Virus record (IMG/VR): IMGVR_UViG_3300028048_000069
Location: 72,047 to 136,046 of that record
Reading direction: 5' to 3' (one strand)
DNA from: a virus
Taxonomy: Duplodnaviria > Caudoviricetes
DNA length: 64,000 bases
Of the stretch, positions 32,738 to 63,815 are shown piece by piece. The translations under genes were made by a program, and so were the position numbers. The notes beneath the pieces are model-generated. The model searched no databases. It was given only the letters and a program-made list of their open reading frames with translations, and was not told the DNA's origin. Position 1 is the first letter of the stretch, and the number at the start of each line of letters is the position of its first letter.

Positions 32738-33037
32738 ATGAAATTTGTAAAGTTGATTAAATCCGAAAAAGGAATACCAGCTGTAGAATATAGAAGAATG
32801 AACGATGGCATTCATCATTTAGCAATATTTAATAGTGTACAAGATGCTAAAGAATGTTTTGATGCTTTAAGACATATGGAAGAAATTGATTTTGTGGATG
32901 ATGAATCGGTAAATGATTATTTATATCAAGATGCATTTAAAAATTGTGTAGACGATATAGAAGTAGATTATAGAACAATTCAAAAAGACCCTAAATATAA
33001 CATTATAAATAAATCTTTCGTTTTTGATATATATTAA
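32738..33037 (+). CDS. Leader-tagged protein 1 (putative internal head protein)
   Basis: N-terminus MKFVKLIKSE. Confidence 0.6.
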   Translation: MKFVKLIKSEKGIPAVEYRRMNDGIHHLAIFNSVQDAKECFDALRHMEEIDFVDDESVNDYLYQDAFKNCVDDIEVDYRTIQKDPKYNIINKSFVFDIY

Positions 33038-33046
33038 AGGTACTAT

Positions 33047-33334
33047 ATGAAATTTACAAAAGTTATTAAAGCCGAAGGCATTTACGATAAATATAAACGA
33101 GAAATGGATACAGCCAATTCTAATTATGATGTTATAGGCAAAGAATTAAAAGCACTACAAGATAAATTGTATGAGATTAAATCTAAAGCCTCTAACTTAT
33201 ATTATATGGCTAGTTCTGGTGATAATAAAGAATTAACAAACCAAGCAAAAGAATTATCTAATTTAGTTGATGATGCTGCTTGGGATGGTATACACGAATT
33301 ACAGCAAGCAATTCTTAAAGTAATTTATAAATAA
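33047..33334 (+). CDS. Leader-tagged protein 2 (helical)
   Basis: N-terminus MKFTKVIKAE. Confidence 0.6.
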   Translation: MKFTKVIKAEGIYDKYKREMDTANSNYDVIGKELKALQDKLYEIKSKASNLYYMASSGDNKELTNQAKELSNLVDDAAWDGIHELQQAILKVIYK

Positions 33335-33936
33335 TGAAATTCTTTAAACTAATACCTTATTTAATTATCGCATTTCTGCTTATTCGTATTGTATATTTGA
33401 ATAAGCAGAATACTATTTTAATTGATAAAACTGCTACTCTTGAAGAAAATCTTAAAAATAAAACAGTTATCTATAAAGATAAAATAATCTATAAAGAACG
33501 AGTAGATACAGTTAGTGGTAAGGAAGTAAAGCAAGAAACTGTATATATTCCAATTGATGGTAAGATAGAAATACTTACTCCTTCCGAACAAGAAAAATTA
33601 AATCTAAATATATTAGATAAAGCATTTAACCATATAATTAAACAAGAAGATGGCTCGGTTATTTTAATTAAAAATAAAGGATTTACACTTGCCCCAGAAG
33701 TCGCTGCTTTATATAGTGATAAATTAGAACTAGGGTTACAAGTTAAAGTATTTTATTGGGATAGATATAATCTAGGCGCAGGTATTACTAATAATTCTGT
33801 TTTATATGGTTATGCATCAAGAAATATTTCTGATATATTAAACTTTACAAAAAATACTGCTGCTCAAGTATCATTAGGTAAAGATTTAGAAAATGGTGAT
33901 ACTAAATTCTTGTTTGGTGTTAGTGTAAGATTATAA
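33334..33936 (+). CDS. Membrane-anchored protein with C-terminal amphipathic beta strands (spanin candidate)
   Basis: N-terminal TM, short coiled coil, C-terminal alternating strands ending TKFLFGVSVRL. Confidence 0.4.
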   Translation: MKFFKLIPYLIIAFLLIRIVYLNKQNTILIDKTATLEENLKNKTVIYKDKIIYKERVDTVSGKEVKQETVYIPIDGKIEILTPSEQEKLNLNILDKAFNHIIKQEDGSVILIKNKGFTLAPEVAALYSDKLELGLQVKVFYWDRYNLGAGITNNSVLYGYASRNISDILNFTKNTAAQVSLGKDLENGDTKFLFGVSVRL

Positions 33937-33940
33937 ATTA

Positions 33941-33996
33941 TTTACTTATTTTGTAAAATATTGTATTATATAATTATAATAAATACATTTATATTT
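33941..33996 (+). promoter_or_regulatory. sigma70-like promoter (TTTACT-N17-TATTAT) followed by late-motif variant ACATTTATATTT (33985-33996)
   Basis: Both elements read directly upstream of the ATG at 34016. Confidence 0.5.
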
Positions 33997-34015
33997 AATG
34001 TGGGAGAATAAATTT

Positions 34016-34246
34016 ATGAAATTTAAAAAATTAGTTAAATCCGAAGAAGAAATTAAAGATACTAATAAAAGAAAAACTAAAATCGAAGAGTGGTTAGAGT
34101 CAATAGATGATGAATTGTATTATATTAAAGGTATGATTAAATCTAATGTAGAAGCGCATCCTAATCGTGGAGATATTAAAAGTGCAATAACTAAAAAATT
34201 GCAAGATGCTTATTCTTCACTGCTTGATATAGAGGACCTTTTTTAA
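34016..34246 (+). CDS. Leader-tagged protein 3
   Basis: Start moved to the ATG at 34016 (GGGAGA SD): MKFKKLVKSEE. Confidence 0.6.
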   Translation: MKFKKLVKSEEEIKDTNKRKTKIEEWLESIDDELYYIKGMIKSNVEAHPNRGDIKSAITKKLQDAYSSLLDIEDLF

Positions 34247-34256
34247 ACAGTTAATT

Positions 34257-34784
34257 ATGAAACTAATTAGAGTAATTAAATCTAAAATTGTTAAAAAAGA
34301 TAATAAGTACCAAGTTCAATCCGAAAAGGGAAAGAATTTAGGTACTTATGATACAAAAGAACAGGCCGAAAAAAGACTTAAACAGGTAGAAATGTTTAAG
34401 CATATGAAATCTAGTATGTCTGCATCTGATGTAGAAAAAATGTGGCAGAATAGATATGATGTAATAATTGATAAAATAGATTATGAAGATGTTTATATGA
34501 CAATTATTACAGATGACCAAAAAGAGCATAAACTTACTCTTTCTTTAGATTATGAATTAGGCAGTTTTGTACCAGAAACAAAAGGAACTTCAAGTCCATA
34601 TTTAGCCGATACCCCAGAAGATTATTATGGAAATAAGGCTTATTATGAAGATTTTGATATTAAAAAGATTACTATTACAAATATAGATGGAGAGAAAACA
34701 AATATTGATATCCCATTAAATAGCGATTTAGCGCAGTCTTTGTATAGTATGGTAGAAGAACATTATAGATTTACTCAAGATTAA
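34257..34784 (+). CDS. Leader-tagged protein 4 (two domains)
   Basis: MKLIRVIKSK; basic module KYQVQSEKGKNLGTYDTKEQAEKRLKQVEMFKH; then KSSMSAS and an acidic domain. Confidence 0.6.
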   Translation: MKLIRVIKSKIVKKDNKYQVQSEKGKNLGTYDTKEQAEKRLKQVEMFKHMKSSMSASDVEKMWQNRYDVIIDKIDYEDVYMTIITDDQKEHKLTLSLDYELGSFVPETKGTSSPYLADTPEDYYGNKAYYEDFDIKKITITNIDGEKTNIDIPLNSDLAQSLYSMVEEHYRFTQD

Positions 34785-34808
34785 TATTTTATCGAACATA
34801 GAGTAAAG

Positions 34809-34834
34809 AAACCACCTAGAAATAGGTGGTTTTA
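34809..34834 (+). terminator. Intrinsic terminator
   Basis: AAACCACCTA-GAAA-TAGGTGGTTT(T). Confidence 0.85.
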
Positions 34835-34845
34835 TTTATGCTTCT

Positions 34846-34857
34846 TCATTTATATTT
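34846..34857 (+). promoter_or_regulatory. Putative late promoter TCATTTATATTT
   Basis: 27 nt upstream of the ATG at 34885. Confidence 0.7.
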
Positions 34858-34884
34858 TATATATAACTTTTTAAAGGTGTCCAA

Positions 34885-36678: not shown

Positions 36679-36680
36679 TT

Positions 36681-37013
36681 ATGAAAAAATTAGCAAAGAT
36701 TGTTGATGAAAAATTACATACAGTAAATGTTGCCCTTGGTGACGACATGTCTTTTTATAAATCAATGGGATTTGTAAGTCTTAATGTTGAACAAGGATAC
36801 GATGGAAATTGGTATATAGAAGGATATGCCCCAGTAAAACCAGAGCCTACATTACAAGAAACATTAGAAGCATTGGAAGAAAAATATCATATGCCTCGTG
36901 TAGTAAGAGAAGGTATATTAGGAAATCCTTCAATGTACAGTGAATTTAATGTAAATAAAGCGAAAGATTTAGAAGATATTGCAGAAGCAATAAGGAAGGC
37001 AAATAATGGCTAA
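36681..37013 (+). CDS. Tail fibre assembly/chaperone-like protein
   Basis: Follows the fibre gene; VEQGYDGNWY..GYAP.KPEP. Confidence 0.5.
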   Translation: MKKLAKIVDEKLHTVNVALGDDMSFYKSMGFVSLNVEQGYDGNWYIEGYAPVKPEPTLQETLEALEEKYHMPRVVREGILGNPSMYSEFNVNKAKDLEDIAEAIRKANNG

Positions 37014-37944: not shown

Positions 37945-37951
37945 TTAGGTA

Positions 37952-39601: not shown

Positions 39602-39616
39602 ATTAGGAGTTATATC

Positions 39617-40105: not shown

Positions 40106-40118
40106 AGAGGTAATAATA

Positions 40119-40850: not shown

Positions 40851-40902
40851 TTAGTATTGTTTTAATAATTCCTAATAAAAATAGACTTTAAAGGATAGAA
40901 AT

Positions 40903-49882: not shown

Positions 49883-49894
49883 TCATTTATATTT
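49883..49894 (+). promoter_or_regulatory. Putative late promoter TCATTTATATTT
   Basis: 39 nt upstream of the ATG at 49934. Confidence 0.7.
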
Positions 49895-50213: not shown

Positions 50214-50447
50214 ATGAAAAAAGTATGGGATAAAATTGTAGAAGTTTTGAAAGTTATTTGGAATGGAATTAAAACAATTTGTTCTTGGTTCTTCAAAATT
50301 TTTAATACGAAAGAAAAATTGGCAGCCATTTTATTAACAGTTTATATTTGGCATAGTTTACCAGTAAATGTTGGTTTGAAAATTCAAGTATTTTCGCTCT
50401 TCTTTATTTTGGGTGTATTACTTTTAGATATTAAGGAAGATAAGTAA
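50214..50447 (+). CDS. Small membrane protein (holin candidate)
   Basis: Amphipathic N-terminus and two short TM segments. Confidence 0.4.
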   Translation: MKKVWDKIVEVLKVIWNGIKTICSWFFKIFNTKEKLAAILLTVYIWHSLPVNVGLKIQVFSLFFILGVLLLDIKEDK

Positions 50448-50950
50448 TGAAGTTTATTAGAGTATTAAAAGCAGGTCGTGGCGCAGGATTAACACTTACC
50501 AATTTTGAATTAAAATTTACAGAGCCAATCAAACTCACAAATGGTTATAGAGGTGAGGTAAATCCTAATTCCATAAAGATTGTTTCATTCGATGTTTATG
50601 ATTCTGATGAAAATCTTATAGGAAATTTTGGTGAAGATATGGCTTCAGTTGTAGATGCCGAACTTAATTTTGGATATACAATTAAAGAACCAATAGAAAA
50701 TGGAGATAACCCAATAAAAGTGGACACTCTTATTCAAAATGAACCTATAGAAGAATATATTGGTAAAGGCCAATGGACTTATGAATATTTAAAGAAAGAT
50801 AATATATATGAAGTTCATTCAGATGGGTGTGTTATGTGCTTTGATTATGGCTATACCGCTGACTTGTCGATTTGGCTTAAAATAAAATTAGATGGTGCTA
50901 ATTTACTGAATATTTTGAACGAACAGGACGGATATGTAGATGAAATTTAA
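50447..50950 (+). CDS. Leader-tagged protein 5
   Basis: MKFIRVLKAG. Confidence 0.6.
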   Translation: MKFIRVLKAGRGAGLTLTNFELKFTEPIKLTNGYRGEVNPNSIKIVSFDVYDSDENLIGNFGEDMASVVDAELNFGYTIKEPIENGDNPIKVDTLIQNEPIEEYIGKGQWTYEYLKKDNIYEVHSDGCVMCFDYGYTADLSIWLKIKLDGANLLNILNEQDGYVDEI

Positions 50951-51797
50951 ATTATTAAAAGCAAATGAATGGAAAGTAGAAAGAAGACATCACGATACAG
51001 AAAATGGTGAAGATTATTACTATATATGGGGACCAGAAGGTGAATATTGTGATGCCGATGGCGAACCCTATCGTTTTGATAGTAGAGAAGATGCTTTAGA
51101 AGAAGTAGAATATTTAAAGTCTGAACATAAGTTTGATAAAAAATCTAGAAATTTGACCCGTTCAGAAAGACATAATAAAATGATGAATGGTATTTTTGAA
51201 TACAAAAATAAAATTGATAATGCCAAAGCAGAATTTTTAAAATCAAAAGGGTTGTCTGAAGAAGAATTAGAATACTTAAAAAAGAATACGGGTTTAGGAA
51301 GAGATGCTCTTGATGAAAAACTTATTGAACTTGGATTACATAAAGAATTTTGGAATACTCAAAAGAATGCTTCAAAAAAAGTAACTTCAAAATTAGAATC
51401 TGGAAAATGGTATAAAATAAATGGTAACCCATTATCTTTACAATTTACTGGTGAAACTACTCGTTCTGGTAATCTTATTTTTGTAAAAGCAGATGGAACA
51501 CAAGTGGTATTAGACCCAAGTGTAGAAAAACTTGCTGAAGAATTTGATTATGAAAAACATAACAAAATAGCATCCAAGAAAGTTAAATCAGGCGAAAGTT
51601 ATGGTTGGTATGTAGATGCAGGCGAAGCCTGGGATAAACTTCAACTGTGGATTGATACTGTTGGTGCGGAAGCAGCATTAGATGATATTGCACATGCTAT
51701 GGGCACAGACGAACTTTCTGAATGTTTAGCCTTTATCTTTAGAAATAATGACTTCAAAGAAGGTTGCTCTGATTATGAAGAAGAGGAAGATGAATAA
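50940..51797 (+). CDS. Leader-tagged protein 6 (putative polyprotein)
   Basis: MKFKLLKAN; internal KNASKKVTSK and KIASKKVKSG linkers. Confidence 0.6.
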   Translation: MKFKLLKANEWKVERRHHDTENGEDYYYIWGPEGEYCDADGEPYRFDSREDALEEVEYLKSEHKFDKKSRNLTRSERHNKMMNGIFEYKNKIDNAKAEFLKSKGLSEEELEYLKKNTGLGRDALDEKLIELGLHKEFWNTQKNASKKVTSKLESGKWYKINGNPLSLQFTGETTRSGNLIFVKADGTQVVLDPSVEKLAEEFDYEKHNKIASKKVKSGESYGWYVDAGEAWDKLQLWIDTVGAEAALDDIAHAMGTDELSECLAFIFRNNDFKEGCSDYEEEEDE

Positions 51798-52456
51798 TGA
51801 AATTTAAATTATTAAAAGCATCGACGAGTGTAAAAACAGTAGTTCCTTTATTTGATGGTTTTTATAATACCATTTTTGAAAATTATTGGAACAGCCAAGA
51901 AGAAATAGGAAGAGTATTTACCGATAAAGTAAATGAAAAAATAGGTAGCATATTACCTTCTTTCAGTTATACTTTTGAAAAAATTTATTCTCCTGCTCAA
52001 TACAATTATAGCACAGATGAAATTTATGCAACCGCTACATTTGATATGAACGAGTTGATGAATTATTTATCTGCTAATAAAAGTGCCTTTGATTCTTTTG
52101 CTCAAAGTAATTTTTCGAGTTATGATGGGTTTATTTCATTCGTTCCTAATAACTATGATGAATTTGTACAAGAATTAACATCCAAAGGTAGCAGTGATTT
52201 ATCAAGTTTTGTAGTTGGTGCTGTTGAATTTATTTTGTATAACGAATATGGAGATAATATTAAGAACGATTTAAATGAAGACACCTACTATGATATGGAT
52301 GTCCCAGAAGATGAAAGATGGGAAGTAGATGGTTTTACTTATGATACGGAAGAAGATGCTCGTTTAGAGTTTAAAAATGTATGTGAAAGTGAACCTTCTG
52401 AAGACCATGTTTTAATGTTAAACGACGAAGAAGTAGAATTTTATAAGGGTAAATAG
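51797..52456 (+). CDS. Leader-tagged protein 7 (acidic)
   Basis: MKFKLLKAS; PLFDGFY, SPAQYNYSTD, SSYDGFISF. Confidence 0.6.
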   Translation: MKFKLLKASTSVKTVVPLFDGFYNTIFENYWNSQEEIGRVFTDKVNEKIGSILPSFSYTFEKIYSPAQYNYSTDEIYATATFDMNELMNYLSANKSAFDSFAQSNFSSYDGFISFVPNNYDEFVQELTSKGSSDLSSFVVGAVEFILYNEYGDNIKNDLNEDTYYDMDVPEDERWEVDGFTYDTEEDARLEFKNVCESEPSEDHVLMLNDEEVEFYKGK

Positions 52457-52458
52457 TT

Positions 52459-52815
52459 ATGAAATTTATAAGAGTTTTAAAAGGTGGTTTAAGCCAAAGA
52501 GAGTTAGACCAAATAGGTGCTTTACCAAGCGATAAAGTAGGAAAGTATAATCTTTATCAAGGTCAAGGTGAATTTTATATAACTAAACATAAATTGGATG
52601 ATACTCTTGCTTTAATGGAAACTGCCGATACTTTTGAAGAAATCTATGATGCATATCGGTTAGATTTTGAAGAAAATCCTTTGGTAATAGATAAGAATTT
52701 ACAATCAGAATATGAAAACTATTGGGGTACAGAAATAGAATTAGACCCAGACATTGAAGATGACAATTTTGAAAATTATGGTTTTTATGATTTGAGTAGC
52801 CATTATGCAGATTAG
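52459..52815 (+). CDS. Leader-tagged protein 8 (very acidic)
   Basis: MKFIRVLKGG. Confidence 0.6.
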   Translation: MKFIRVLKGGLSQRELDQIGALPSDKVGKYNLYQGQGEFYITKHKLDDTLALMETADTFEEIYDAYRLDFEENPLVIDKNLQSEYENYWGTEIELDPDIEDDNFENYGFYDLSSHYAD

Positions 52816-52825: not shown

Positions 52826-53173
52826 ATGAAATTTAAAGTTAAATCAGAACAAACAGTAGAAGTATCAATGAGTTGGTATTTGAGTTTATTGGAAAAGGAA
52901 CTTCAAAAAGCCAATGAAAGATGGGGCGGAGAAGCATCAGTTGCTTTAGCACCTAGATTATTGGAATTAATAGAAGATGTTGGACCTGGCCAGAATAGTG
53001 ACCCCGACTATATAGCCGATAACTTCGTTATAAATGGCGAATTTGTAGAAAAAGAAGAATTTAAAGAAGGCGGAGAACACGATTATTTTTATAAAAAATA
53101 TAATGGTGATTGGCAAGCACTATGTGATGATGCCCTAATTTATGACGAAAACTATGCTTGTATGCAATTTTAA
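52826..53173 (+). CDS. Leader-tagged protein 9 (acidic)
   Basis: MKFKVKSE. Confidence 0.55.
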   Translation: MKFKVKSEQTVEVSMSWYLSLLEKELQKANERWGGEASVALAPRLLELIEDVGPGQNSDPDYIADNFVINGEFVEKEEFKEGGEHDYFYKKYNGDWQALCDDALIYDENYACMQF

Positions 53174-53224: not shown

Positions 53225-53262
53225 AATTAAAGCCTCTATACTATTTAGAGGCTTTAATTTTA
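53225..53262 (+). terminator. Inverted repeat / terminator
   Basis: AATTAAAGCCTCTA-TACTATT-TAGAGGCTTTAATT. Confidence 0.75.
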
Positions 53263-53285
53263 TGTATAAGGAGAATAAAGTAGAA

Positions 53286-53639
53286 ATGAAGAAAGTATTA
53301 GTAACAGCAGTATTAGTAACACCCTTACTCACATTCGGTCAAAGCAGAGTAGATACAACCATAGGCTCTTATGGGTTTAAACTAGCATTACAGCCAAAAT
53401 CTGTTACTCAAATGGATTTGCAAAATAATATACAAAGGCAAATTGTAAAGCAGCAGACTAAAGCGAAGGTAGAAAAGGCAAAGAAATTAACCAAAGAGCA
53501 TTGTACAGAAAATAAATGTACATTCAAACAAGTATTAAAGGCAGTATTTTTAGGCGGTAAATTTCCTTGGGAAACAGAAGAACAATACAAGGATAGGTTA
53601 CAGAGAAGTACACATCCTTCAAACTTGCCTTTTAAATAA
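53286..53639 (+). CDS. Secreted hypothetical protein (moron-like)
   Basis: MKKVLVTAVLVTPLLTFG signal peptide; gene bracketed by two terminators. Confidence 0.55.
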   Translation: MKKVLVTAVLVTPLLTFGQSRVDTTIGSYGFKLALQPKSVTQMDLQNNIQRQIVKQQTKAKVEKAKKLTKEHCTENKCTFKQVLKAVFLGGKFPWETEEQYKDRLQRSTHPSNLPFK

Positions 53640-53735: not shown

Positions 53736-55400
53736 ATGCCTTTCAAAAGAATTGCAACTCTTGATATTAAACAAGTGTATGCTACTGATGAAAATGGAAA
53801 ATTTCAGTGGCGTAGTTTCGTAAAACAAGCGAATGATAACCCATCTCAAGATAGAACAGATTTCCTACCTAAAGATGCTTACAAATATGATACAAACCAT
53901 TTCTTATTTTTAACTGCTAGAGCCATTTCTGGTGGCGAAAAATGGGGACATAATGGTAACTATGATTACTTTCCTTGGGAAGAAATTAAGAAAGCATTAC
54001 CGACCTATCCTGGATGTGGTTTCTATATTGAACATAAAGAAGATAGTGAAGAAGATGCTAAAGGTATCGTATTAGATGCTTTTGCTAATGATGAAGAAGA
54101 GTATGCAGTTTGTTTATGCGCTATTGATAAAGATGAATACCCAGAGTTTTGCCAACAAATTTTAGATGGTACTTATAATCAAGTATCAATGTCTTGTTTG
54201 GCTAATGAATGTGAATGCTCTGAATGTGGTAATGTGGCTCATAGTTTTGATGAATTATGTCAACATATGAACCCTAATATGCCAGTTACTTATATGAAAG
54301 GTAAAACAAATGACAAAGGCGAAGATATATACGAAATTAACAGAGATTTATGTTTTAGTGGATTGTCGGCTGTGGCAGTTCCTGCTGATAAAGACGCCTT
54401 CGTATTTGACATTAAGGCTTCGAAGAAAAAAGAAAATAAATTACAAGCAGAATTGGTTAAATATCAAAATATCAAACAAGCCGCTAAAATGAAAGAATTT
54501 AGAACGGCCTGTGAAGAAGAATTTAAAGCATTAGATACAGTTGCTTTATTAAATAAACTTCAAACTTGTGCGAATGCTATTACAAATCAAGTAATGGATA
54601 ACAGTACAGGTGGCAGAGATATTATAAATGCCCCATTACAAGGTATTTTGAAAGAGTTAATGGAACTTCAAATCGGATTAACAGTATTAGATTTAAATAA
54701 ACTAGCAACTCCTTCTGTTGATAATACAGTAGCGGTTGAAGGTGAACCTGAAACAGAAATGCCAGAAATTACTACTAATGTTGAAGAAGAATCTAAATTA
54801 GGAGAAGGTCATATTCTTACTTATAAAGATTTAAAGAACCAATATAACGAAGAAGAAGAAGTTAATTTTGATAAGGAGATAAATTCAATGTTAAAACAAG
54901 CATCCTTCTATGAGGATTTCCAAAAAGACAAGTCAGGTACTGGAGTTATAAAAATAATTGATCAATTAAATGTTATGGCTAATGATCTTCGCGATTCTTT
55001 TACAAATAAAGATAATAGAATGGGACAAAGATCTACGAAAAGTATTGCCGAATATATAATAAAAAAAGCAGATAAATTGAAAGACGCTGCTATCAAATTA
55101 AAAGAAAGATATCCCGAAAAAAATAAAGTAGAACCTATATTTAATTTTGATAAAGAAATAGAATCATATGATAATTGGTCATATACTCCATTTAGTTCCA
55201 CTGCAAGCAAAGGAAGAAATATTAAGTATTTTGATAATACAATGGATATGTTGAAATGGATAAAACAAAATAAAGATTCCATTCAAAACGTAACCATAGA
55301 GATGAATTGTTTTGGAGATTCGTGCGCTAAAGTAACATATGAAACCTCTAAGGAAATAGACTCATCTTTAGATAAAATTATTGAAAAAACTTATAAATAA
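53736..55400 (+). CDS. Prohead (capsid maturation) protease with long C-terminal extension
   Basis: NGNYDYF, YIEH, KGIVLDA, VSMSC...CSECGN...LCQH, YEIN, SAVAVPADKDA: HK97/herpes-fold His/Ser protease with a Zn insert; upstream of scaffold and capsid. Confidence 0.75.
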   Translation: MPFKRIATLDIKQVYATDENGKFQWRSFVKQANDNPSQDRTDFLPKDAYKYDTNHFLFLTARAISGGEKWGHNGNYDYFPWEEIKKALPTYPGCGFYIEHKEDSEEDAKGIVLDAFANDEEEYAVCLCAIDKDEYPEFCQQILDGTYNQVSMSCLANECECSECGNVAHSFDELCQHMNPNMPVTYMKGKTNDKGEDIYEINRDLCFSGLSAVAVPADKDAFVFDIKASKKKENKLQAELVKYQNIKQAAKMKEFRTACEEEFKALDTVALLNKLQTCANAITNQVMDNSTGGRDIINAPLQGILKELMELQIGLTVLDLNKLATPSVDNTVAVEGEPETEMPEITTNVEEESKLGEGHILTYKDLKNQYNEEEEVNFDKEINSMLKQASFYEDFQKDKSGTGVIKIIDQLNVMANDLRDSFTNKDNRMGQRSTKSIAEYIIKKADKLKDAAIKLKERYPEKNKVEPIFNFDKEIESYDNWSYTPFSSTASKGRNIKYFDNTMDMLKWIKQNKDSIQNVTIEMNCFGDSCAKVTYETSKEIDSSLDKIIEKTYK

Positions 55401-55406
55401 GTTATT

Positions 55407-55472: not shown

Positions 55473-57056
55473 ATGGCTAAAAGAAAAATCAAAGCTGAAG
55501 AAGAGGTCAAAGAAACAGCAGACCTCGAAAAAGACGACAAAGATTTAGAAGTTAAAGAAGAAGTGACAGAAGAAACTCCTAAAGCCGACGAAAAGGCCGA
55601 AGAAGAAAAACCTGCCACCGAAGAAAAAGAAGATCTTATCGTTTTATCAGATGGTGCCACAGTTGAAGAAAATGTTAAATTGACGGAAGAAGAAGCCGAC
55701 GATTTAGCAAAAATTACAAAGGCTGATGGTACTGAAATCTTCATTCAAACCCCAGAAGGTTCTGAAGAAGAAAAGAAAGAAGTTTATGAAGCTATCGTAG
55801 ATGCCGAAAAACCTGAAGAAGAAGTCGCTGAAGATTTAGAATCTGAAGTGAATGATGAATTAGGTGCTGAACCTTTACCTGAAACAATGGAAGAAATTGA
55901 TGGAGTGGCTTATGTTCCTGCTGCTTGTCATACTGCCCATGCTTCATTAAATAATTCTTATTATATCTTAAAACTTAAAGGCGGAAAATTGAAAGCCTTG
56001 AAAGCGGGTAAGATTTTAAATAAGCAATTAAAAGCCTCTATTATTAAGGCTTACAAAGAAGGTAAAAAATTGCCTGAAGCAGAAACAGTATTTAATAAAA
56101 TTGCTTCTAAAATTGGTTATACTTTTGGTGCTTTCACAAAATTAGCATCCAAACTTTCTAGAAAAGTTACAAAAAGAGTTGCTAAAAAGATTGCCAAAAG
56201 AATTATCCCTACAGTCGGAGACACTGTTGAAATGAATGGTAAAGAAATTAAAATTACTGCTTCTAAAAAAGGAGTATTAACTTTGGAAAATGGTAAAAAA
56301 TTATTAGCCAAAAGATTAGTGGCTACAGAATTACCTGATACAGTTCCTGGCACAGATAATGATAAAGCCGAAGAATTGAAAAACTTCTCAATTGATGAAA
56401 AAGATATTAAGAAGGAAAATATCGATTCTACAGTTGCTTTAGAAAAAGCCGAATTGGAAGAAGGTAAAGATGGTGTTAAAGCCGCAACTTCAAAAGTAAA
56501 ATCATTATACAACAGATTACCTGGTAAATCTGGTGTAGGTGATGAAGTTGAATGGGCTATGAAAGACTTTAATAAAGAACGCAATAAAACAAGCAAGACA
56601 TTGGCTTCTCAAATTAAAGCCTTGCGTGATGCTACAAAAGAAATTCGTGCTCAAAAAGAAGTAATTGCTTCTAAAGATGCCGAATTGAAAGCATTACAGG
56701 AAAAATTAGCGGCTATGAACTCTAAAGAAGAAACAATGATTAAATCAGCCAAAATTAACAAAATCTTGGCTTCGATGAACATTGAAGATGAAGAAGAAAA
56801 GGCCGCTATGACCGAAAAATTTGCTAAATATACGAAGGCGCAATTAGATGCTGTCTATGAAACTATGACCGCTTGCCCTTCTGAAGAAGCAACAGTTATG
56901 CACGAACGCATGATTAATGAAGAAATGAAAAAAGAAGCTAGCGCACTAAAAGGTTTCGTACCTAGTTTCACAATGGAAGAAGGAACAAAGATTTCTGCTT
57001 CCGACGAAATGGAAAAATTAGTTCTTGAAAGAGAATTAGATTCCATTGGACAATAA
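55473..57056 (+). CDS. Capsid scaffolding / core protein
   Basis: Highly charged E/K-rich protein with a coiled-coil C-terminus, between protease and capsid genes. Confidence 0.7.
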   Translation: MAKRKIKAEEEVKETADLEKDDKDLEVKEEVTEETPKADEKAEEEKPATEEKEDLIVLSDGATVEENVKLTEEEADDLAKITKADGTEIFIQTPEGSEEEKKEVYEAIVDAEKPEEEVAEDLESEVNDELGAEPLPETMEEIDGVAYVPAACHTAHASLNNSYYILKLKGGKLKALKAGKILNKQLKASIIKAYKEGKKLPEAETVFNKIASKIGYTFGAFTKLASKLSRKVTKRVAKKIAKRIIPTVGDTVEMNGKEIKITASKKGVLTLENGKKLLAKRLVATELPDTVPGTDNDKAEELKNFSIDEKDIKKENIDSTVALEKAELEEGKDGVKAATSKVKSLYNRLPGKSGVGDEVEWAMKDFNKERNKTSKTLASQIKALRDATKEIRAQKEVIASKDAELKALQEKLAAMNSKEETMIKSAKINKILASMNIEDEEEKAAMTEKFAKYTKAQLDAVYETMTACPSEEATVMHERMINEEMKKEASALKGFVPSFTMEEGTKISASDEMEKLVLERELDSIGQ

Positions 57057-57081
57057 ATTAAATTAAAGGAAGATAAATTAA

Positions 57082-57516: not shown

Positions 57517-57534
57517 TGAGGGAGAATAAATAAT

Positions 57535-58473
57535 ATGACAGAAAGAGAATTACAAATGTTAGCCTCCCTTATTACTGGGAAAGGCATGAAAAAAGAAGCC
57601 TCTGCCGAACAGAAGGCTCAAGATACAGCCAAGTTAAATGAATACTATGGCAAATTAATGCAACAAGGTGCTTTTGGGCAAAAGAAAGCCGCTGTGGCCT
57701 TCTCACAAGCCTTGAAAGTTCGTGTACCTTATGAAGCGGTAACTCCTAAAATCTTCGCTCAAGATAACATTTCTAACAATGTGGCTTGGGCTGATGTAGA
57801 GTTCCCAGAAATTGGTGCCTGTGTGGTTCCTTTCAAAGGTGCTCCTGCTCGCATTGAACGCGGTCCAAAACGTGTTTTCTATAACACCCACACCGCTGCC
57901 ATCAACTGGATTGTTTCTTACGACCAAGTATTCACAGCCGCTTACAATACTTTAGATGAAGCCAAAAACAAAGTAGCCATTGGGTTGGCTTTGGAATTGG
58001 ATACTGAACTCTTCAAAGTATTAGCCGCTGCCGCTTCTGCCAATGTGTATGGTGGTTATCAAGCCGCTACAATGTCATTAGATGTAATCAATGACATCCG
58101 CGCTGCTCAAATGGAATTATCCTTAATCACCACAGCCATTGTGATGCACCCAAGCAAATACTATGACTTGTTGAAAGTAACTCCTCAGGCTGTAGACCAA
58201 GTAACGATGAACACAATCATTGAAAATGGTTATGTTGGTCAGTTATATGGTATCAAATTCATCGTCAGCAAACTCTGCCCGAAGAATTTTGCCTATGGTA
58301 TTACTGCTCCTGAATATTTAGGGAAATATGTGTTGCGTCAACCAGAACAAATGAAAGTGACCGATATGCCTTGGAAACTTGAATATGTAGTAACTGGTTA
58401 TGCCAACTATGGTTTAGTGTTACACAACATTCCAGCCGTATTCCCTGTGGAGTTCGTGGAAGAATCAATCTAA
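57535..58473 (+). CDS. Major capsid protein (HK97 fold)
   Basis: 312 aa; LALELDTELF, AIVMHPSKYYDL, GYVGQLYGIKFIVS; strong high-expression codon bias; followed by a terminator. Confidence 0.85.
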   Translation: MTERELQMLASLITGKGMKKEASAEQKAQDTAKLNEYYGKLMQQGAFGQKKAAVAFSQALKVRVPYEAVTPKIFAQDNISNNVAWADVEFPEIGACVVPFKGAPARIERGPKRVFYNTHTAAINWIVSYDQVFTAAYNTLDEAKNKVAIGLALELDTELFKVLAAAASANVYGGYQAATMSLDVINDIRAAQMELSLITTAIVMHPSKYYDLLKVTPQAVDQVTMNTIIENGYVGQLYGIKFIVSKLCPKNFAYGITAPEYLGKYVLRQPEQMKVTDMPWKLEYVVTGYANYGLVLHNIPAVFPVEFVEESI

Positions 58474-58493
58474 TTTAACGATTAGATAATTAT

Positions 58494-58525
58494 AAGAACC
58501 CTCTAGCAATAGGGGGTTCTTTTTT
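58494..58525 (+). terminator. Intrinsic terminator
   Basis: AAGAACCCTCTA-GCAA-TAGGGGGTTCTT-TTTT. Confidence 0.88.
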
Positions 58526-58536
58526 CATTTATATTT
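58525..58536 (+). promoter_or_regulatory. Putative late promoter TCATTTATATTT
   Basis: Abuts the terminator U-tract; 29 nt upstream of the ATG at 58566. Confidence 0.7.
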
Positions 58537-58565
58537 ATATACTTTATTACAAAGGTGGAACTTAA

Positions 58566-59084: not shown

Positions 59085-59112
59085 GCGTTTTAGACCCTTG
59101 TAATAACTTTAT

Positions 59113-59149
59113 ACCCCCTATATCATAAAAATGCGATATAGGGGGTTTT
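59113..59149 (+). terminator. Intrinsic terminator
   Basis: ACCCCCTATATC / GATATAGGGGGT-TTT. Confidence 0.8.
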
Positions 59150-59188
59150 AAGCGAATTTTCTGCATAATTTCATTTAAATTGTGAAAT

Positions 59189-59200
59189 TCATTTATATTT
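59189..59200 (+). promoter_or_regulatory. Putative late promoter TCATTTATATTT
   Basis: 49 nt upstream of the sheath ATG. Confidence 0.7.
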
Positions 59201-59249
59201 ATAGAACAAATTTGTTTTTAAAATCTTTTATAAGAGAGGAAGTAATTAA

Positions 59250-60650: not shown

Positions 60651-60670
60651 TTAGGTTAATGGGTTATAGT

Positions 60671-60701
60671 TAAAGGGCTATCAGATAATGGTAGCCCTTT
60701 A
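60671..60701 (+). terminator. Terminator-like hairpin
   Basis: TAAAGGGCTATCA-GATAA-TGGTAGCCCTTTA. Confidence 0.75.
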
Positions 60702-60713
60702 TCATTTATATTT
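60702..60713 (+). promoter_or_regulatory. Putative late promoter TCATTTATATTT
   Basis: 23 nt upstream of the ATG at 60737. Confidence 0.7.
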
Positions 60714-60736
60714 ATATATAAATTTGAGGATAAAAG

Positions 60737-61510
60737 ATGGCAACACAAATATCTTGGACAATACCTTACAACATATTACAAGACCCTTCTTATACGGAAA
60801 TAAATATTTATAGAGGGAAAGATGAAACAGACGATTCCACCTATAAAATTATTGCTACTATTGATAGATGGGTTGATGGTGATAAAACACAAGAAATAGA
60901 TACTTATACAGATGAAGAAGGAAAACATGATGAGTATTACTATGTTCGTTATAAAAAAGATAATGGTACTTTATCCAAGATTTTATTAACAGTTTTTGAC
61001 TTAAACCCAAAAGAATTAAGATGGGTCGGACAATTAAGAAAAATGTTAGACCCTATTATTACTTCAGATATTTTACAAGATGGTACTATGAGACCTATGA
61101 CTGATACCGATTTAATGTTAGGTATCAATATGGCATTAGGTTTTTGGAATAGTTATCCTCCAACTACAGAACATCATATAAGTAATTTTCCAAAAGAATA
61201 TGAATATATGTTATTGATGTTCGCTCAATATTTTTCAATCTTAAATAAGATGTTAGGACTTGAACTTCGAGACTTCAGTTATAGTGATAATGGTTTAAGT
61301 TTAAATCAAAACTTTACTCAAGCAATACAAAATGCTTTAGCACAAATACTTGGCTTCTTAAATCCTTTATTACAAAAAACAAAAATGGAATTTTCAAGTG
61401 GCTCGGCTGCTTGGTTGGGAAGTGCTCAATATGCTATTGGTTTAAATGGCAGAATGGGGCAGTTCCCTATCGACCTATTATGTATGTTTAGAAGTTTAAG
61501 TATGAACTAA
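60737..61510 (+). CDS. Head-tail connector / neck protein with an N-terminal FN3-like segment
   Basis: ISW...IYR...Y.D...YYYVRY; N..PP.T, FSYSDNGLSL; structural context. Confidence 0.55.
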   Translation: MATQISWTIPYNILQDPSYTEINIYRGKDETDDSTYKIIATIDRWVDGDKTQEIDTYTDEEGKHDEYYYVRYKKDNGTLSKILLTVFDLNPKELRWVGQLRKMLDPIITSDILQDGTMRPMTDTDLMLGINMALGFWNSYPPTTEHHISNFPKEYEYMLLMFAQYFSILNKMLGLELRDFSYSDNGLSLNQNFTQAIQNALAQILGFLNPLLQKTKMEFSSGSAAWLGSAQYAIGLNGRMGQFPIDLLCMFRSLSMN

Positions 61511-61517
61511 TAAATTA

Positions 61518-61546
61518 TTTACATTTTTAATTAAATTTATTATAAT
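61518..61546 (+). promoter_or_regulatory. sigma70-like promoter TTTACA-N17-TATAAT; 61555 is probably leaderless
   Basis: 17 bp spacer; ATG 8 nt after the -10 box; no SD. Confidence 0.6.
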
Positions 61547-61554
61547 ATAATTAT

Positions 61555-61902
61555 ATGAAATTAATAAGAGTAATAAAATCAGAAAAGATATTAAGATGGG
61601 GTATCTCTCGCAGAGCGATAGCCAAGGTTGTTGCTAAACATTTTAAAGAAATAACCAAGGTAAATATAAATAAACTATTTACCAAAGTTGATGACCAATA
61701 TGGTACTTCAATAGAAAATATTGATGCAAAACTATTTGATGCCCAAATTCCTAAAATATATGAATGGGTAAAAAGTAGATTTGAATTAGATAAAGATGAT
61801 TATGATTATATGATTAACGACAGTGATTTTATTGATATGATAACCGATGAATTGGTAAATATGGTTGATATTGATAAAGTTAGATATGAAGAGGAACAAT
61901 AG
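61555..61902 (+). CDS. Leader-tagged protein 10
   Basis: MKLIRVIKSE. Confidence 0.6.
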   Translation: MKLIRVIKSEKILRWGISRRAIAKVVAKHFKEITKVNINKLFTKVDDQYGTSIENIDAKLFDAQIPKIYEWVKSRFELDKDDYDYMINDSDFIDMITDELVNMVDIDKVRYEEEQ

Positions 61903-61905
61903 TTT

Positions 61906-62367
61906 ATGAAATTTGTAAAAATGATAAAAGCAGATATTGAGCCTGATTTTTGGTACTACTTGGATAGAGTAGAAAACCAAATGGAAGTTTTAAGAGAAAG
62001 TAAAAGAATTAACGAAGTTGTTGATATTATATATCCATTAACAGAAGAACTAAAAAAGGCGTCTCAAGCATTATCATCAATTTTAACCAGTGATAATGCA
62101 ACTCAAAGACAAAAAACATTTAAGCAATTAGAAAAAGAGGGAATAGATGTCGAACCCATTAGACAGATTTGTACTTATGTTTGGGGTTATGGTGCTTATG
62201 ATAATAAATTTGCTAAACAATATACACCAGAAAAATGGTTAAAATATTTAGAACGGATGTTAGAACATTCTACAAATACAGAGCATAAAACAGTTGGTGA
62301 TGATATGGTAGTTACGAAATATCCAAAGGCTATTGAAAAATTAAAACAATGGATGGATAACTTATAA
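61906..62367 (+). CDS. Leader-tagged protein 11
   Basis: MKFVKMIKAD. Confidence 0.6.
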   Translation: MKFVKMIKADIEPDFWYYLDRVENQMEVLRESKRINEVVDIIYPLTEELKKASQALSSILTSDNATQRQKTFKQLEKEGIDVEPIRQICTYVWGYGAYDNKFAKQYTPEKWLKYLERMLEHSTNTEHKTVGDDMVVTKYPKAIEKLKQWMDNL

Positions 62368-62377
62368 GGAAAATAAT

Positions 62378-62875
62378 ATGGCTAAAAATGTTATTAAGAA
62401 TTTACAAGAAAAAGGTATAGATGTACAAGCAACTGTTCAAATGTTAAATAAGGCATTGGCAGACGAATATTTGGCTGCTCATCAATATTTAGCACCTATT
62501 GGATTAGCGGTTGGTAAATTAAGACCCGAAGTAGAAGAAGAATTTCAAAAGCATTATGAAGAAGAACTTAAACATGCTCAAATGCTTAAAGAAAGAATTA
62601 TTAAATTAGGTGGTATTCCTTTACAAAGTCCTGAAGAATGGTATGCTTATACAAATTGTGGATATACCAAACCTACCGATTATAACACACAAATTTTAGT
62701 AACACAAAATCTTGAAAGTGAACGTAAAGCTGAGAATGTTTATATAGGAATTATGAAGGCTTGTAAAGAAGTTGATGATATGGTTACTTATAAAATTGCT
62801 AGAAATATTCTTATCGATGAAGAAGAACACGAACAAGATTTGGAAGACTTCTTGAACGATATGGAGTTAATTTAG
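62378..62875 (+). CDS. Ferritin-like DPS-like (DpsL) protein
   Basis: LNKALADEY...QY, EEELKHA..L.ERI..LGG.P, C.Y..P, QNLESER, ILIDEEEHEQDL di-iron motifs. Confidence 0.85.
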   Translation: MAKNVIKNLQEKGIDVQATVQMLNKALADEYLAAHQYLAPIGLAVGKLRPEVEEEFQKHYEEELKHAQMLKERIIKLGGIPLQSPEEWYAYTNCGYTKPTDYNTQILVTQNLESERKAENVYIGIMKACKEVDDMVTYKIARNILIDEEEHEQDLEDFLNDMELI

Positions 62876-62877
62876 TT

Positions 62878-63399
62878 ATGAAATTCATTAGAGTTTTTAA
62901 AGCAAGTGAAAATACTGAATTATCTGTTGATGATTTTGACTTTATTCAAAGTAGTGACGGTAGATGGCATGTTCGACCATTAAATGATAAAGCAAATCAA
63001 GCAAGTTTACCATTATATGCTTTAACTGATAAAGATCGTCAAAGATCTTATAGAAAATTATTAGAATTAGTTAGAAAATATAATAATAGAGAAATTATTG
63101 AAAAAAGAAAGAAATTAATGTCTGATTTAAATAAATTATTTAAACGCAATGGATTAGAAAAAGGTTCATATACTACGACATCAGTAAGAGGTTTTCATAC
63201 AATAAGAGATAATGGTTATTATTTTGAAAAATCATTTGAGCCAAGTGCTTTTGATATTAAATTAACTTGGCATAATGGCAACGAAGAATATTCAAATAAA
63301 ATAAAAAATATATTGAATTCAAAAAATATTAAATATACAGAAAAATTAGGCGATATTCATATCGATTTAAATGATCAAAGTGATATGGAGATTATATAA
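62878..63399 (+). CDS. Leader-tagged protein 12
   Basis: MKFIRVFKASE. Confidence 0.6.
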   Translation: MKFIRVFKASENTELSVDDFDFIQSSDGRWHVRPLNDKANQASLPLYALTDKDRQRSYRKLLELVRKYNNREIIEKRKKLMSDLNKLFKRNGLEKGSYTTTSVRGFHTIRDNGYYFEKSFEPSAFDIKLTWHNGNEEYSNKIKNILNSKNIKYTEKLGDIHIDLNDQSDMEII

Positions 63400-63815
63400 T
63401 GAAATTAATTAGATTATTAAAAGCAAATAATAATAGATATACAATTTGGTTAGAAGGTCTTAATGGTTTAGTTGAAGAGATAGAGGCAGAAAATCTAACT
63501 GAACAGCAAGTAATAGATTGGACAAAACGTTATCTATATGATTATTGGCGTGATTGTAGAAAGGATTGTAAAAGAGGAGAAAAATTTACCTATTTATCGG
63601 CAGAAGTAAATAATTTAGAAGATGCAAAAATGGTATTAAAAGAAATAGCAGGAATGTGTTTATCATATTCAGATGATTTAGATACAGTATTAAATGATAC
63701 ATATAATTCAACAGAAGATATTGTAGAATATGTAGATAAAAAACCAGAACTTGGTATTGGCGAAATTGATACAGAAAATTGGACAGATGAAGATTGGATG
63801 AGAACAGGCCAATAA
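63399..63815 (+). CDS. Leader-tagged protein 13 (acidic)
   Basis: MKLIRLLKAN. Confidence 0.6.
   Translation: MKLIRLLKANNNRYTIWLEGLNGLVEEIEAENLTEQQVIDWTKRYLYDYWRDCRKDCKRGEKFTYLSAEVNNLEDAKMVLKEIAGMCLSYSDDLDTVLNDTYNSTEDIVEYVDKKPELGIGEIDTENWTDEDWMRTGQ

Follow-up and report, generated by a model that had tools for sequence, protein, structure and literature searches.

About one-eighth (12%) of the genes of an uncultured 136-kb phage begin with a common leader of ~7–9 residues, which raises the question of what this peptide does for the proteins that carry it. The initial annotation of a 64,000-nucleotide stretch of this genome (the window) named 13 such ORFs in three clusters, each downstream of a late-motif copy, and proposed that the leader loads them into the head.

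Pattern and distribution of the leader

All 13 ORFs lie on the plus strand and have the N-terminus MK[FL]-x-[KR]-x-x-K-[ASG] at the starts first assigned to them. The late motif TCATTTATATTT is indeed found 5' of every cluster, and also upstream of the portal, protease, scaffold, sheath, and fibre genes. The features are listed below by window position, with a slash marking the presumed scissile bond.

32364–32374 and 33986–33996, +, late-motif copies preceding cluster 1
32738–33037, +, leader ORF, 99 aa, MKFVKLIKS/E; acidic body, no Pfam or PHROG match
33047–33334, +, leader ORF, 95 aa, MKFTKVIKA/E
34016–34246, +, leader ORF, 76 aa, MKFKKLVKS/E; start preferred over the in-frame ATG at 33998, which is less likely because a GGGAG ribosome site lies just before 34016
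34257–34784, +, leader ORF, 175 aa, MKLIRVIKS/K; residues 7–49 have a G001 orthologue
49884–49894, +, late-motif copy preceding cluster 2
50447–50950, +, leader ORF, 167 aa, MKFIRVLKA/G
50940–51797, +, leader ORF, 285 aa, MKFKLLKA/N; apparently three modules, module 1 being residues 9–63
51369–51389, +, internal junction ASKKVTS, residues 144–150 of the 50940 ORF
51570–51590, +, internal junction ASKKVKS, residues 211–217 of the 50940 ORF
51797–52456, +, leader ORF, 219 aa, MKFKLLKA/S; phrog_37559, function unknown
52459–52815, +, leader ORF, 118 aa, MKFIRVLKG/G
52826–53173, +, leader ORF, 115 aa, short form MKFKVKS/E; weak G001 orthologue with leader MSKFFKVKSS
60703–60713, +, late-motif copy preceding cluster 3
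61555–61902, +, leader ORF, 115 aa, MKLIRVIKS/E
61906–62367, +, leader ORF, 153 aa, MKFVKMIKA/D
62878–63399, +, leader ORF, 173 aa, MKFIRVFKA/S; sole basic body in the window
63399–63815, +, leader ORF, 138 aa, MKLIRLLKA/N

Every member of the original set is real, but its total was an undercount. A strict pattern (M-[KL]-[FL], 2–4 residues including K/R, then K-[ASG]) matches the starts of 22 ORFs across the 136,046-bp genome, adding nine outside the window at genome positions 184, 462, 866, 1360, 3732, 4214, 7411, 11622, and 44459. Because the contig ends have a common repeat of at least 100 bp, cluster 3 continues into genome positions 184–1824. The whole-genome scan found no strict match on minus-strand ORFs and none at internal Met residues (0/763), and shuffling the N-terminal residues left a mean of 0.08 matches. 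As first described, the full leader is absent from ORFs in the initial 32 kb of the window; genome-wide, it is confined to late genes, occurring in 22 of the 72 genes of late-motif units versus none of the 114 early/middle genes (Fisher p = 8.6e-11).

The earlier proposal that selection acts on the peptide also agrees with the codons. Leader serines are encoded by TCA, TCT, TCC, and AGT, arginines by AGA, CGT, and CGA, and various codons are used for Leu/Val; identity between leader genes is 66% in the 30 leader-coding nucleotides versus a background value of 33% in the 30 nucleotides upstream. The use of both codon families for Ser, Arg, and Leu, together with background identity upstream, points to selection on the peptide rather than on the DNA.

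Tagged proteins and their relatives

An all-against-all BLASTP search of the leader ORFs retrieved only the leader and a few weak coiled-coil-like matches (E above 5e-5), in line with the reported dissimilarity of the bodies. Their acidity was confirmed as well: with the leader stripped, pI is below 6 in 20 of 22 bodies (median 4.65), versus a median of 6.5 and 45% acidic proteins in the whole proteome. Pfam and PHROG searches yielded no assignable function for the 13 window bodies. Outside the window, the tagged protein at genome position 44459, adjoining the portal gene, matches ART-PolyVal (PF18760, E 1.5e-19). This ADP-ribosyltransferase parallels T4 Alt, an ADP-ribosyltransferase that bears the capsid targeting sequence (CTS) and is packaged (PMC5694885), and is of a type found in polyvalent (injected) proteins. 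A ferritin-like gene is also located among the tagged genes.

The 916-aa, 1039-aa, and 285-aa proteins of this phage are modular, and the heptad ASKKVKS that joins modules in the 285-aa ORF at 50940 does so too in the 1039-aa and 916-aa polyproteins. In the AF2 model of ORF 50940, residues 1–8 have pLDDT <50 and residues 11–60 have pLDDT 74–84; the leader is thus predicted to be disordered and outside the fold.

The tagged set was expected to be variable, and it is. In relatives whose structural proteins are 70–96% identical, the tag is kept, and for 11 of their 12 tagged ORFs this genome has no detectable homologue. T-even internal-protein loci have the same turnover pattern (PMC9026906, PMC3012670).

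Other relatives have their own versions of the leader. In the 300-kb relative G001, a 739-aa protease polyprotein contains ASKQFFKIKKAS, ending at the presumed cut, twice, and the free-standing leaders of G001 have the sequence MSKFFKIKKAS. Residues 3–70 of ORF 50940 match the module that follows the first internal copy with 46% identity (E 5e-13), and the leader of this ORF lines up, column by column, with the internal joint of the polyprotein. The window ORF at 34257 is 64% identical over 44 aa (E 1e-9) to g1_271400, which has G001's own leader (MNNWTKILSY), and the weakly orthologous bodies of the 52826 ORF and g1_271563 each carry the leader version of their genome. Further versions occur in a G001 minus-strand set, in L058 and L059, and in the cultured Bacillus phage G (MKRLIKK[SA]); in the last three genomes the tagged genes lie between portal and protease or MCP. 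The leader is not private to this phage: it is a trait of a wide clade with a common protease family, in lineage-specific versions.

The protease and related sites in head proteins

Cluster 2 is followed by the genes for the head-maturation protease, a scaffold-like protein, and the major capsid protein (MCP), which contain sites resembling the end of the leader.

53736–55400, +, head-maturation protease, domain ~17–228 plus a C-terminal extension of ~320 aa; phrog_18299
54405–54422, +, candidate self-release site FDIKA/S, immediately behind the final strand of the protease domain
55473–57056, +, scaffold-like protein, 527 aa; KIKA/EEE (N-terminal) and MKKEAS (C-terminal) kept in relatives
57535–58473, +, MCP; N-arm site MKKEAS at nt 57586–57603

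The AF2 model of the protease (pLDDT 87) has herpesvirus assemblins and T4 gp21 as its best Foldseek matches, and the enzyme is predicted to have this fold. Residues H100 and S151 are invariant, as are C161, C164, and C175 of a Cys-rich insertion that, to our knowledge, is absent from assemblins. The N-terminal 16 residues, disordered in the model and outside the fold, bear a family-wide conserved motif. The FDIKA/S site has low pLDDT and a conserved position in G000, L001, L002, both G001 copies, and phage G gp19; no common joint sequence was seen in distant members of the protease family.

The protein resembles the UL26-type protease-scaffold polyprotein (assemblin) of herpesviruses in having an N-terminal domain followed by a long scaffold-like extension, with a candidate self-release site (D-I-K-A/S-K) right after the domain, a small residue before the cut, and a hydrophobic P3, although sequence identity is only 8–14%. 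In herpesviruses, assemblin cleavage takes place behind the Ala of (V/L/I)-x-A/S, a specificity that matches the leader ending [VIL]-K-[AS]. No herpesvirus is known to put this site at the N-termini of numerous unrelated cargo proteins as a tag.

The scaffold has the strongest [VILF]K[AS] excess in the genome (10 found versus 2.5 expected), and its N-terminus carries [IL]KA/EE[ED] at differing distances from Met. Relatives with 59–65% MCP identity retain the MCP N-arm site in the form KK-x-AS or K-I-AS; this site and that in the C-terminal region of the scaffold are conserved among relatives amid variable sequence, and the portal N-terminus has a similar K-[AS] site. Like the end of the protease domain, these are regions that prohead proteases cut in known systems. 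The structural-protein site K-K-x-A-S is similar to, not identical with, the leader ending [VIL]-K-[ASG], and short K/A/S-rich motifs are common in this Lys-rich proteome; the genome-wide [VILF]K[AS] count of 139 versus 107 expected is an excess due mostly to leaders and scaffold.

Leader function and comparison with known systems

We propose, with a probability of roughly 0.6, that the leader functions as a removable N-terminal propeptide and connects the prohead and its assemblin-type maturation protease with late proteins that are otherwise unrelated. Its basic amphipathic residues 1–7/9 (Met, Lys, aromatic, basic, two hydrophobic, Lys) would dock to the assembling protease and scaffold core. 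After shell closure, the protease would cut behind K-[Ala/Ser/Gly], as well as at the like sites after its own catalytic domain and in the scaffold, MCP N-arm, and portal N-terminus, and would split cargo polyproteins at their ASKKVKS-type joints. Mostly acidic mature proteins would thereby be freed within the head, and at least some may exit with the DNA. The head-loading proposal of the initial annotation is thus partly supported, by a late-only leader selected as a peptide, by the joints and sites that tie it to the head protease, by cargo turnover, and by the ART-PolyVal protein with its parallel to Alt; against it, clusters 1 and 3 adjoin tail-fibre and sheath genes rather than head genes, strongly acidic proteins would be unusual partners for packed DNA, and the distant protease-family members lack a common joint.

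The leader could instead be a cleavage site only, a relic of protease/scaffold polyprotein modules devoid of address information, with free-standing tagged proteins entering the head via other contacts or being processed outside; we consider this unlikely. It would fit the identity of the leader with internal polyprotein joints, the entry of the homologous G001 module by fusion to the protease, and the G000 internal joints (ASKKVKS), which do not reach the length of the leader and have no Met-Lys-Phe segment. However, a bare site removing just 7–9 residues gives no obvious reason for conservation on 22 proteins, and conserved aromatic and basic positions 2–5 precede the presumed P3–P1; in T4, targeting and processing determinants are different residues of one 10-mer (PMC9026906).

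A tag for another enzyme or machine (a Clp-type N-degron, docking of a modifying enzyme, or a host Prp-type N-terminal protease) is quite improbable. The phage does encode a ClpP-like protein (genome 35162–35794, PF00574, E 1e-12), and ClpP and ClpX of phage G were found in particle proteomics (PMC12484599), but the ClpP-like gene lies in a region classed as early/middle and has no counterpart in G001 (BLASTP, E 1e-4), which has the leader system. The clusters are not accompanied by any radical-SAM or other modifying enzyme that we could see, the Prp-type motif F-F/A-S is not in the leaders, and the leader copies in the protease polyprotein and the MCP, scaffold, and portal sites point to the head protease. 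Gene order bears on a further, very unlikely reading, in which the tag serves the tail, baseplate, neck, or docking of an assembly chaperone: cluster 1 is directly 5' of the tail-fibre genes (34885 onward), cluster 3 comes after the sheath gene and a conserved 257-aa protein at 60737, and L003 has four tagged genes between those two genes. Yet in this genome cluster 2 lies next to the protease and one tagged gene next to the portal, the head-gene arrangement described above holds in L058, L059, and phage G, and the joint in the protease polyprotein has no tail-gene counterpart. That A+T-rich early codons boost late genes, with peptide likeness a by-product, is hardly credible despite codons 2, 3, and 8 being nearly always AAA, TTT, and AAA in a genome of 30% G+C, since the late genes with the highest expression (MCP, sheath, scaffold) and early genes with equally A+T-rich starts (0/114) lack the leader, positions 5, 6, 7, and 9 keep their residue class across codon families (AGT/TCN, AGA/CGN), and the same peptide is found internally, far from start codons.

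The propeptide reading invites comparison with the T4 CTS, reportedly described by Mullaney and Black in 1996. The CTS is found on IPI, IPII, IPIII, and Alt, and is removed by the prohead protease gp21 (PMC9026906, PMC3012670). Both tags are N-terminal peptides of 7–10 residues common to unrelated late proteins, one an ADP-ribosyltransferase in each phage, in sets that vary between relatives; both end in what resembles a cut site of a head protease of the same fold. Unlike the CTS, to which it has no sequence similarity, the leader has Ala, Ser, or Gly at P1 after Lys rather than Glu after Leu/Ile-x, marks 22 mostly acidic proteins (12% of genes) rather than a handful, and doubles as a polyprotein joint, including one fused to the protease in a relative.

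Phages phiKZ, 201phi2-1, and SPN3US have head and ejection proteins with Glu-cleaved propeptides, and the conserved N-termini on their diverged paralogues have been called reminiscent of the CTS (PMC5694885, PMC7411985, PMC10052503). There, too, one gp21-like protease serves many head-internal proteins, and portal and MCP are processed, as predicted here; in contrast to our leader, the propeptides are mostly 80–160 residues long, end in A/S/G-x-E, and occur on paralogous families. Polyvalent proteins of phages and conjugative elements, reportedly described by Iyer, Burroughs, Anand, de Souza, and Aravind in 2017, likewise chain together unrelated effector modules that are presumably delivered along with DNA, and an ART-PolyVal protein is present here, but a short joint of defined sequence, equal to the N-terminal tag, separates our modules, and many stand alone as tagged genes. 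Encapsulin cargo-loading peptides are also short terminal peptides that bring diverse cargo into an HK97-fold shell, as we infer for the leader, whereas they are usually C-terminal, remain uncleaved, bind the shell protein, and involve no protease.

On this sequence-based comparison, the leader is most likely a CTS-like tag for address and cleavage whose P1 is Ala/Ser. The tag is probably cut off, and its most likely role would be capsid loading of a rapidly changing protein set, for which T4 uses a different sequence.

Leader distribution and genome setting

Twenty-two late proteins of this phage begin with a short leader of the form MK[FL]-x-[KR]-x-x-K-[ASG]. The genome, 136,046 bp long with a G+C content of 30%, is one virus contig bounded by direct terminal repeats; nearly every gene lies on the + strand, and the window covers the last 64 kb of the contig (72047–136046). 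Two promoter-like motifs divide it into early/middle and structural gene units: TTAGTATAATATA is found ahead of early or middle genes and TCATTTA[TG]ATTT ahead of every structural operon. The head region has no nucleotide match by blastn in 50,697 phage records, and the protein matches of its protease and major capsid protein (MCP) among these records are both distant. The protease domain pairs with polyproteins of the mycobacteriophage Myrna and Catera type, and the capsid protein is 28% identical to gp27 of Bacillus phage G.

Principal structural genes.
Window from 34885: tail fibres
Window 53736–55400: head-maturation protease (phrog_18299)
Window 55473: scaffold-like protein, 527 aa
Window 57535: major capsid protein
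Window 59250: tail sheath
Genome 42690, outside the window: portal

Just 5′ of the protease lies a 125-aa ORF (window 53262–53639; 82% conserved in the metagenomic relative L001) with a signal-peptide-like start (MKKVLVTAVLVTPLLTF), which looks from its sequence to be a secreted or lipoprotein-like gene within the head operon. A ClpP-like protease gene (PF00574, E 1e-12) is found outside the window at genome 35162–35794 (L019 15162–15794), in a region classed as early/middle.

The initial annotation had reported 13 leader-bearing ORFs in the window, and all of them start as it gave them. A scan of every N-terminus in the genome with the strict pattern raises the number to 22, each in a late-motif unit; 22 of 72 late genes carry the leader versus none of the 114 other genes (p = 8.6e-11). 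The strict pattern does not occur on minus-strand ORFs of the genome or at its 763 internal methionines, and shuffling the N-terminal residues gave a mean of 0.08 matches, which answers the earlier concern that A+T-rich starts alone might generate the motif. Since the contig ends overlap, cluster 3, the last of the three window groups, runs on into genome positions 184–1824, so that eight tagged genes follow one another with nothing but a ferritin-like gene and a small zinc-ribbon ORF in between.

The bodies behind the leader are unrelated to one another by BLASTP (22 ORFs), and removal of the basic leader leaves 20 of the 22 acidic; both properties had been proposed from the window alone. So had selection on the peptide, borne out by the use of both TCN and AGT codons for Ser and both AGA and CGN codons for Arg across the leaders. 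The 30 nt 5′ of the leader genes resemble one another only as much as random A+T-rich sequences would, and the closest pair of leader-coding sequences is identical at 26 of 30 nt. Together, the pattern statistics, the codon use and the background upstream identity dispose of a translation artefact and of a DNA repeat; a cassette boundary was rejected on the same upstream and pairwise identities. Also rejected were a Sec or lipoprotein signal, the leader having no hydrophobic core, and a host Prp-type site, as the leaders contain no F-F↓A-S motif (↓, presumed cut). Leaders end in K-[ASG], with Glu at the next, presumed P1′, position in only 5 of 22 (4 of the 19 nine-residue ones). A literature search for motif strings (MKRLIKK, MKFIRV and others) found no paper containing them.

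Two other genes of the tagged clusters have starts of related appearance. In cluster 1, a 200-aa ORF (window 33334–33936) begins with the leader-like MKFFKLI and passes directly into a hydrophobic helix (PYLIIAFLLIRIV); judging by sequence, it may encode a membrane protein with a start that imitates the leader or arose from it. The ferritin/Dps-like gene in cluster 3 (window 62378–62875; PF00210, E 1.6e-26) begins MAKNVIKN, resembling the starts of the portal (MAKKVKAS) and the scaffold (MAKRKIKAE), and its product may be a head-internal Dps; the relative locus L002 likewise has a ferritin/Dps-like gene, within a tagged cluster upstream of the protease.

The head-maturation protease and leader-like sites

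The protease matched no Pfam protease family and phmmer against PDB sequences returned nothing, so its fold had to be found through structure. An AF2 model of residues 1–255 (39-row alignment) has a mean pLDDT of 87, with residues 1–16 disordered and the linker past residue 228 of low confidence. Its best Foldseek matches are herpesvirus assemblins and T4 gp21 (5JBL; TM 0.60 by target, rmsd 3.1 Å over 171 columns), with probabilities of 0.9–1.0 but E-values of only ~4e-3. His100 and Ser151 are invariant in the alignment and H177 is kept in at least 90% of it; the model, the structural matches and the conserved His and Ser place the enzyme in the assemblin/T4 gp21 fold. At E ≤ 1e-3 the family has 2,077 cluster representatives, and in most of them the protease is N-terminal in a protein of 400–1,600 aa. 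About two thirds of 149 representatives (P0004–P0153) start M-F-[KI]-[KR]-x-[AG]-[ST], and in the window (53736–53783) these residues are disordered in the model (pLDDT <50). The T4 literature has raised the idea that the termini of gp21 may act like a capsid targeting sequence (CTS; PMC9026906).

A small conserved zinc-ribbon protein of 56–69 aa is encoded at window 63832–63999 (into the terminal repeat) and in two relative loci (L058 9328–9534; L059 9781–9990). In L058 and L059 its first ~16 residues closely copy the N-terminus of the neighboring protease (for example, MFKRKGSPEEIIEV versus MFKRIGSLVDIEL), with only a loose resemblance in the window's genome, and the two starts may represent a second, older N-terminal tag common to both proteins. 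In Mycobacterium phage Myrna, the 1211-aa gp97 (L038 11878–15513), annotated as 'tape measure' and encoded upstream of the major head protein, has a window-type protease domain at its N-terminus and is probably a protease-scaffold polyprotein rather than a tape measure.

Assemblins cut at (V/L/I)-x-A↓S, a rule that a leader ending [VIL]-K-[AS]↓ would fit. FDIKA↓SKK lies right behind the last strand of the protease domain in all close relatives, and the same place holds EKVA↓SKS in phage G gp19 and QVYA↓QNK in the second protease of G001, a 300-kb relative contig; [IV]-[KY]-A↓[SQ] is kept directly behind the domain, in the low-confidence linker, in six proteins from four lineages, and with its small P1 residue is a candidate site at which the protease would release itself from its C-terminal, scaffold-type extension. 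Structural proteins were compared across alignable relatives (MCP 59–65% identical), and sites kept amid variable sequence were found in the capsid N-arm (K-K-x-A-S or K-I-A-S, residues ~18–24) and the scaffold ([KN]-K-E-A-[SG], ~40 residues from the C-terminus, and [IL]-K-A↓E-E-[ED], 8 to 27 residues from the start). The portal starts MAKKVKAS in the window's phage and MSIKKTAS in G001, and no protein of the genome is as enriched in [VILF]K[AS] as the scaffold-like one (10 copies, 2.5 expected). This K-[AS] or KK-x-AS motif of the structural proteins is related, not identical, to the leader ending. Places such as these in capsid, scaffold and portal and behind the protease domain are prohead protease cut sites in T4, phiKZ-like phages and herpesviruses (PMC5694885, PMC9026906).

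Several proteins of the genome have modules joined by ASKKVKS or a closely similar heptad: it is present three times in a 1039-aa protein, also in a 916-aa tagged protein, and twice in window ORF 50940 (residues 144–150 and 211–217). Among repeated 6-mers in 150 polyproteins of the protease family, a leader-type joint was found only in the close, G001-like P0009; distant members repeat other motifs, making the joint sequence lineage-specific.

Leader versions and candidate cargo in relatives

Three metagenomic contigs (L001–L003) with structural proteins 70–96% identical to the window's carry 12 ORFs with the same leader, 11 of which have no homologue in the window's genome at E 1e-3. The tagged gene set is hypervariable among close relatives and the tag itself is retained, as in T4. 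Between conserved structural genes of the relatives lie ORFs of 340–394 aa with no homologue detected in the window's genome (L002 13967–15148; L003 1980–3158, 7719–8741 and 10253–11437; G001 251626–252780), probably mobile elements of homing endonuclease- or transposase-like type, which probably make the regions with tagged genes still more plastic.

G001, of which locus L005 is a part, was tiled over its full length. Its MCP and that of the window share 59% identity, and the G001 leaders differ (MSKFFKIKKAS, MTKWTIKKQAE, MKWTIKKKAA, MSWTKVLKAS and similar); 16 of 412 ORFs carry one at the N-terminus versus 7 of 1,561 internal methionines, a 17th match, in a 45-aa ORF of doubtful reality, having been left out. 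In G001 the protease is a polyprotein of 739 aa in which ASKQFFKIKKAS occurs twice; this is the G001 leader minus its Met, serving as an internal joint. Behind the first joint comes a module that shares 46% identity (E 5e-13) with residues 3–70 of window ORF 50940, and in this alignment the window leader MKFKLLKAN falls exactly on the joint. The same body is therefore N-terminally tagged in the window and joint-fused to the head protease in G001. Other orthologous bodies also bear the tag of their own genome: window ORF 34257 (MKLIRVIKSK...) is 64% identical over 44 residues to g1_271400 (MNNWTKILSY...), and ORF 52826 matches g1_271563. Tags thus change in concert within each genome, as would be expected if all copies must fit one partner.

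Structural and replication genes are present in G001 as two complete sets that have diverged, one on each strand (60–146 kb minus, 150–300 kb plus; loci L021–L036). Portal, protease, MCP and sheath each occur twice, and the two sets use different leader versions; the contig is either an assembly chimera of two phages or a jumbo genome with a genuine duplication. Leaders in the minus-strand structural set read MTRWFIKAE and MSGWFIKSN.

Further versions occur in L058 and L059 (MNWLNKKS, MSWLIKKS and similar), between portal and protease, and in Bacillus phage G, where at least 11 ORFs start M-[KR]-R-L-[IMF]-K-K-[SAG], in addition to gp57 (MKKRLLKKIS), and degenerate forms surround the portal, protease and MCP genes. 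In JN638751, the phage G sequence, products with the MKRLIKK[SA]-type start are gp17, gp38 and gp57 and those of ORFs that begin near 73330, 147654, 207449, 245994, 254652, 255160, 258975 and 446709. At the DNA level, a loose version of the phage G leader pattern matches no more often than its reversed control (23 versus 22), and its ORF starts were told from chance matches only by site-by-site inspection. The main text of the phage G proteomics study does not name the tagged gene products.

Just after the leader, several tagged bodies share K-x-x-K-Y-x-V-x-S-E-K-G-K-x-L-G (window 34257–34400, L058 868–1293, G001 271400–271561), recalling small AP2 or DUF2188-like β-hairpin DNA-binding modules; no protein family reached significance for this motif. 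Pfam and PHROGs assigned no function to the 13 window bodies, the sole matches being two function-unknown families (phrog_3684 and phrog_37559), and an ESM Atlas search of ORFs 51797 and 62878 gave no usable lead. An AF2 model of ORF 50940 (4-row alignment; mean pLDDT 49) is readable only in its leader and first module, where, at this low confidence, the disordered leader (residues 1–8) is set apart from the folded module. Outside the window, a tagged 207-aa protein encoded immediately after the portal (genome 44459–45082) matches ART-PolyVal (PF18760; 71.6 bits versus a 31.2-bit cut-off, E 1.5e-19); T4 Alt would be a close functional parallel of this putative ADP-ribosyltransferase.

The leader as a candidate packaging and cleavage tag

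We favor, with a probability of about 0.6, the reading that the leader is a propeptide like the T4 CTS, acting as both address and cleavage tag and matched to the assemblin-type protease; its P1 residue would be Ala, Ser or Gly. This role would be the same at the start of free-standing genes and at the joints within cargo polyproteins. Like the T4 system, the phage has a short N-terminal peptide common to otherwise unrelated late proteins, here 22 ORFs, a predicted gp21-like prohead protease of assemblin fold, and a tagged gene set that varies between relatives as the tag is kept. Unlike T4, which cuts after Glu in (L/I)-x-E, the leaders here end in K-[ASG], and we know of no similarity between them and the T4 CTS sequence.

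Among other explanations, the leader might be purely a relic of cleavage with no address function, which we consider unlikely. A tag recognized by some other enzyme, for instance the phage ClpP-like protein or a modifying enzyme, is quite improbable. The ClpP-like gene has no G001 counterpart by BLASTP, yet G001 has the leader system, and leader copies inside the head-protease polyprotein are hard to square with any partner but the head protease. A tag for tail or other assembly is given no better a chance. A translation feature is scarcely credible given the peptide-level conservation, the mixed Ser and Arg codon families and the absence of the leader from all 114 non-late genes.

The propeptide reading may extend to a clade-wide, evolvable cargo code, a tentative proposal to which we assign somewhat less than even odds. 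The protease's own substrate sequence would serve as a universal adaptor that lineages retune in concert, orthologous cargo included; a protein gaining this sequence at its N-terminus or as a polyprotein joint would be loaded into the capsid and freed by cutting, and more than one tenth of a genome could go to such cargo. The clade meant here is that of phages with an assemblin-type protease heading a polyprotein (~2,000 sequence clusters), including rumen phages of 136–300 kb and Bacillus phage G.

If true, the T4 internal-protein principle of one short address for many interchangeable injected proteins would not be a T-even peculiarity; it would recur in a large, mostly uncultured phage clade, at a far greater scale and with other chemistry, P1 being Ala/Ser as it is in herpesviruses. 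In this phage the 22 tagged proteins, and in its relatives comparable sets, would be candidate first-wave effectors, including at least one predicted ADP-ribosyltransferase and many strongly acidic small proteins that could mimic DNA, and the modular polyproteins would be explained as cargo trains. Through Bacillus phage G, a cultured phage for which virion mass-spectrometry data exist (Gonzalez et al. 2020; PMC12484599), the idea can already be tested, and the tag, a short peptide open to testing, would offer a ready-made packaging handle for non-T4 phages.
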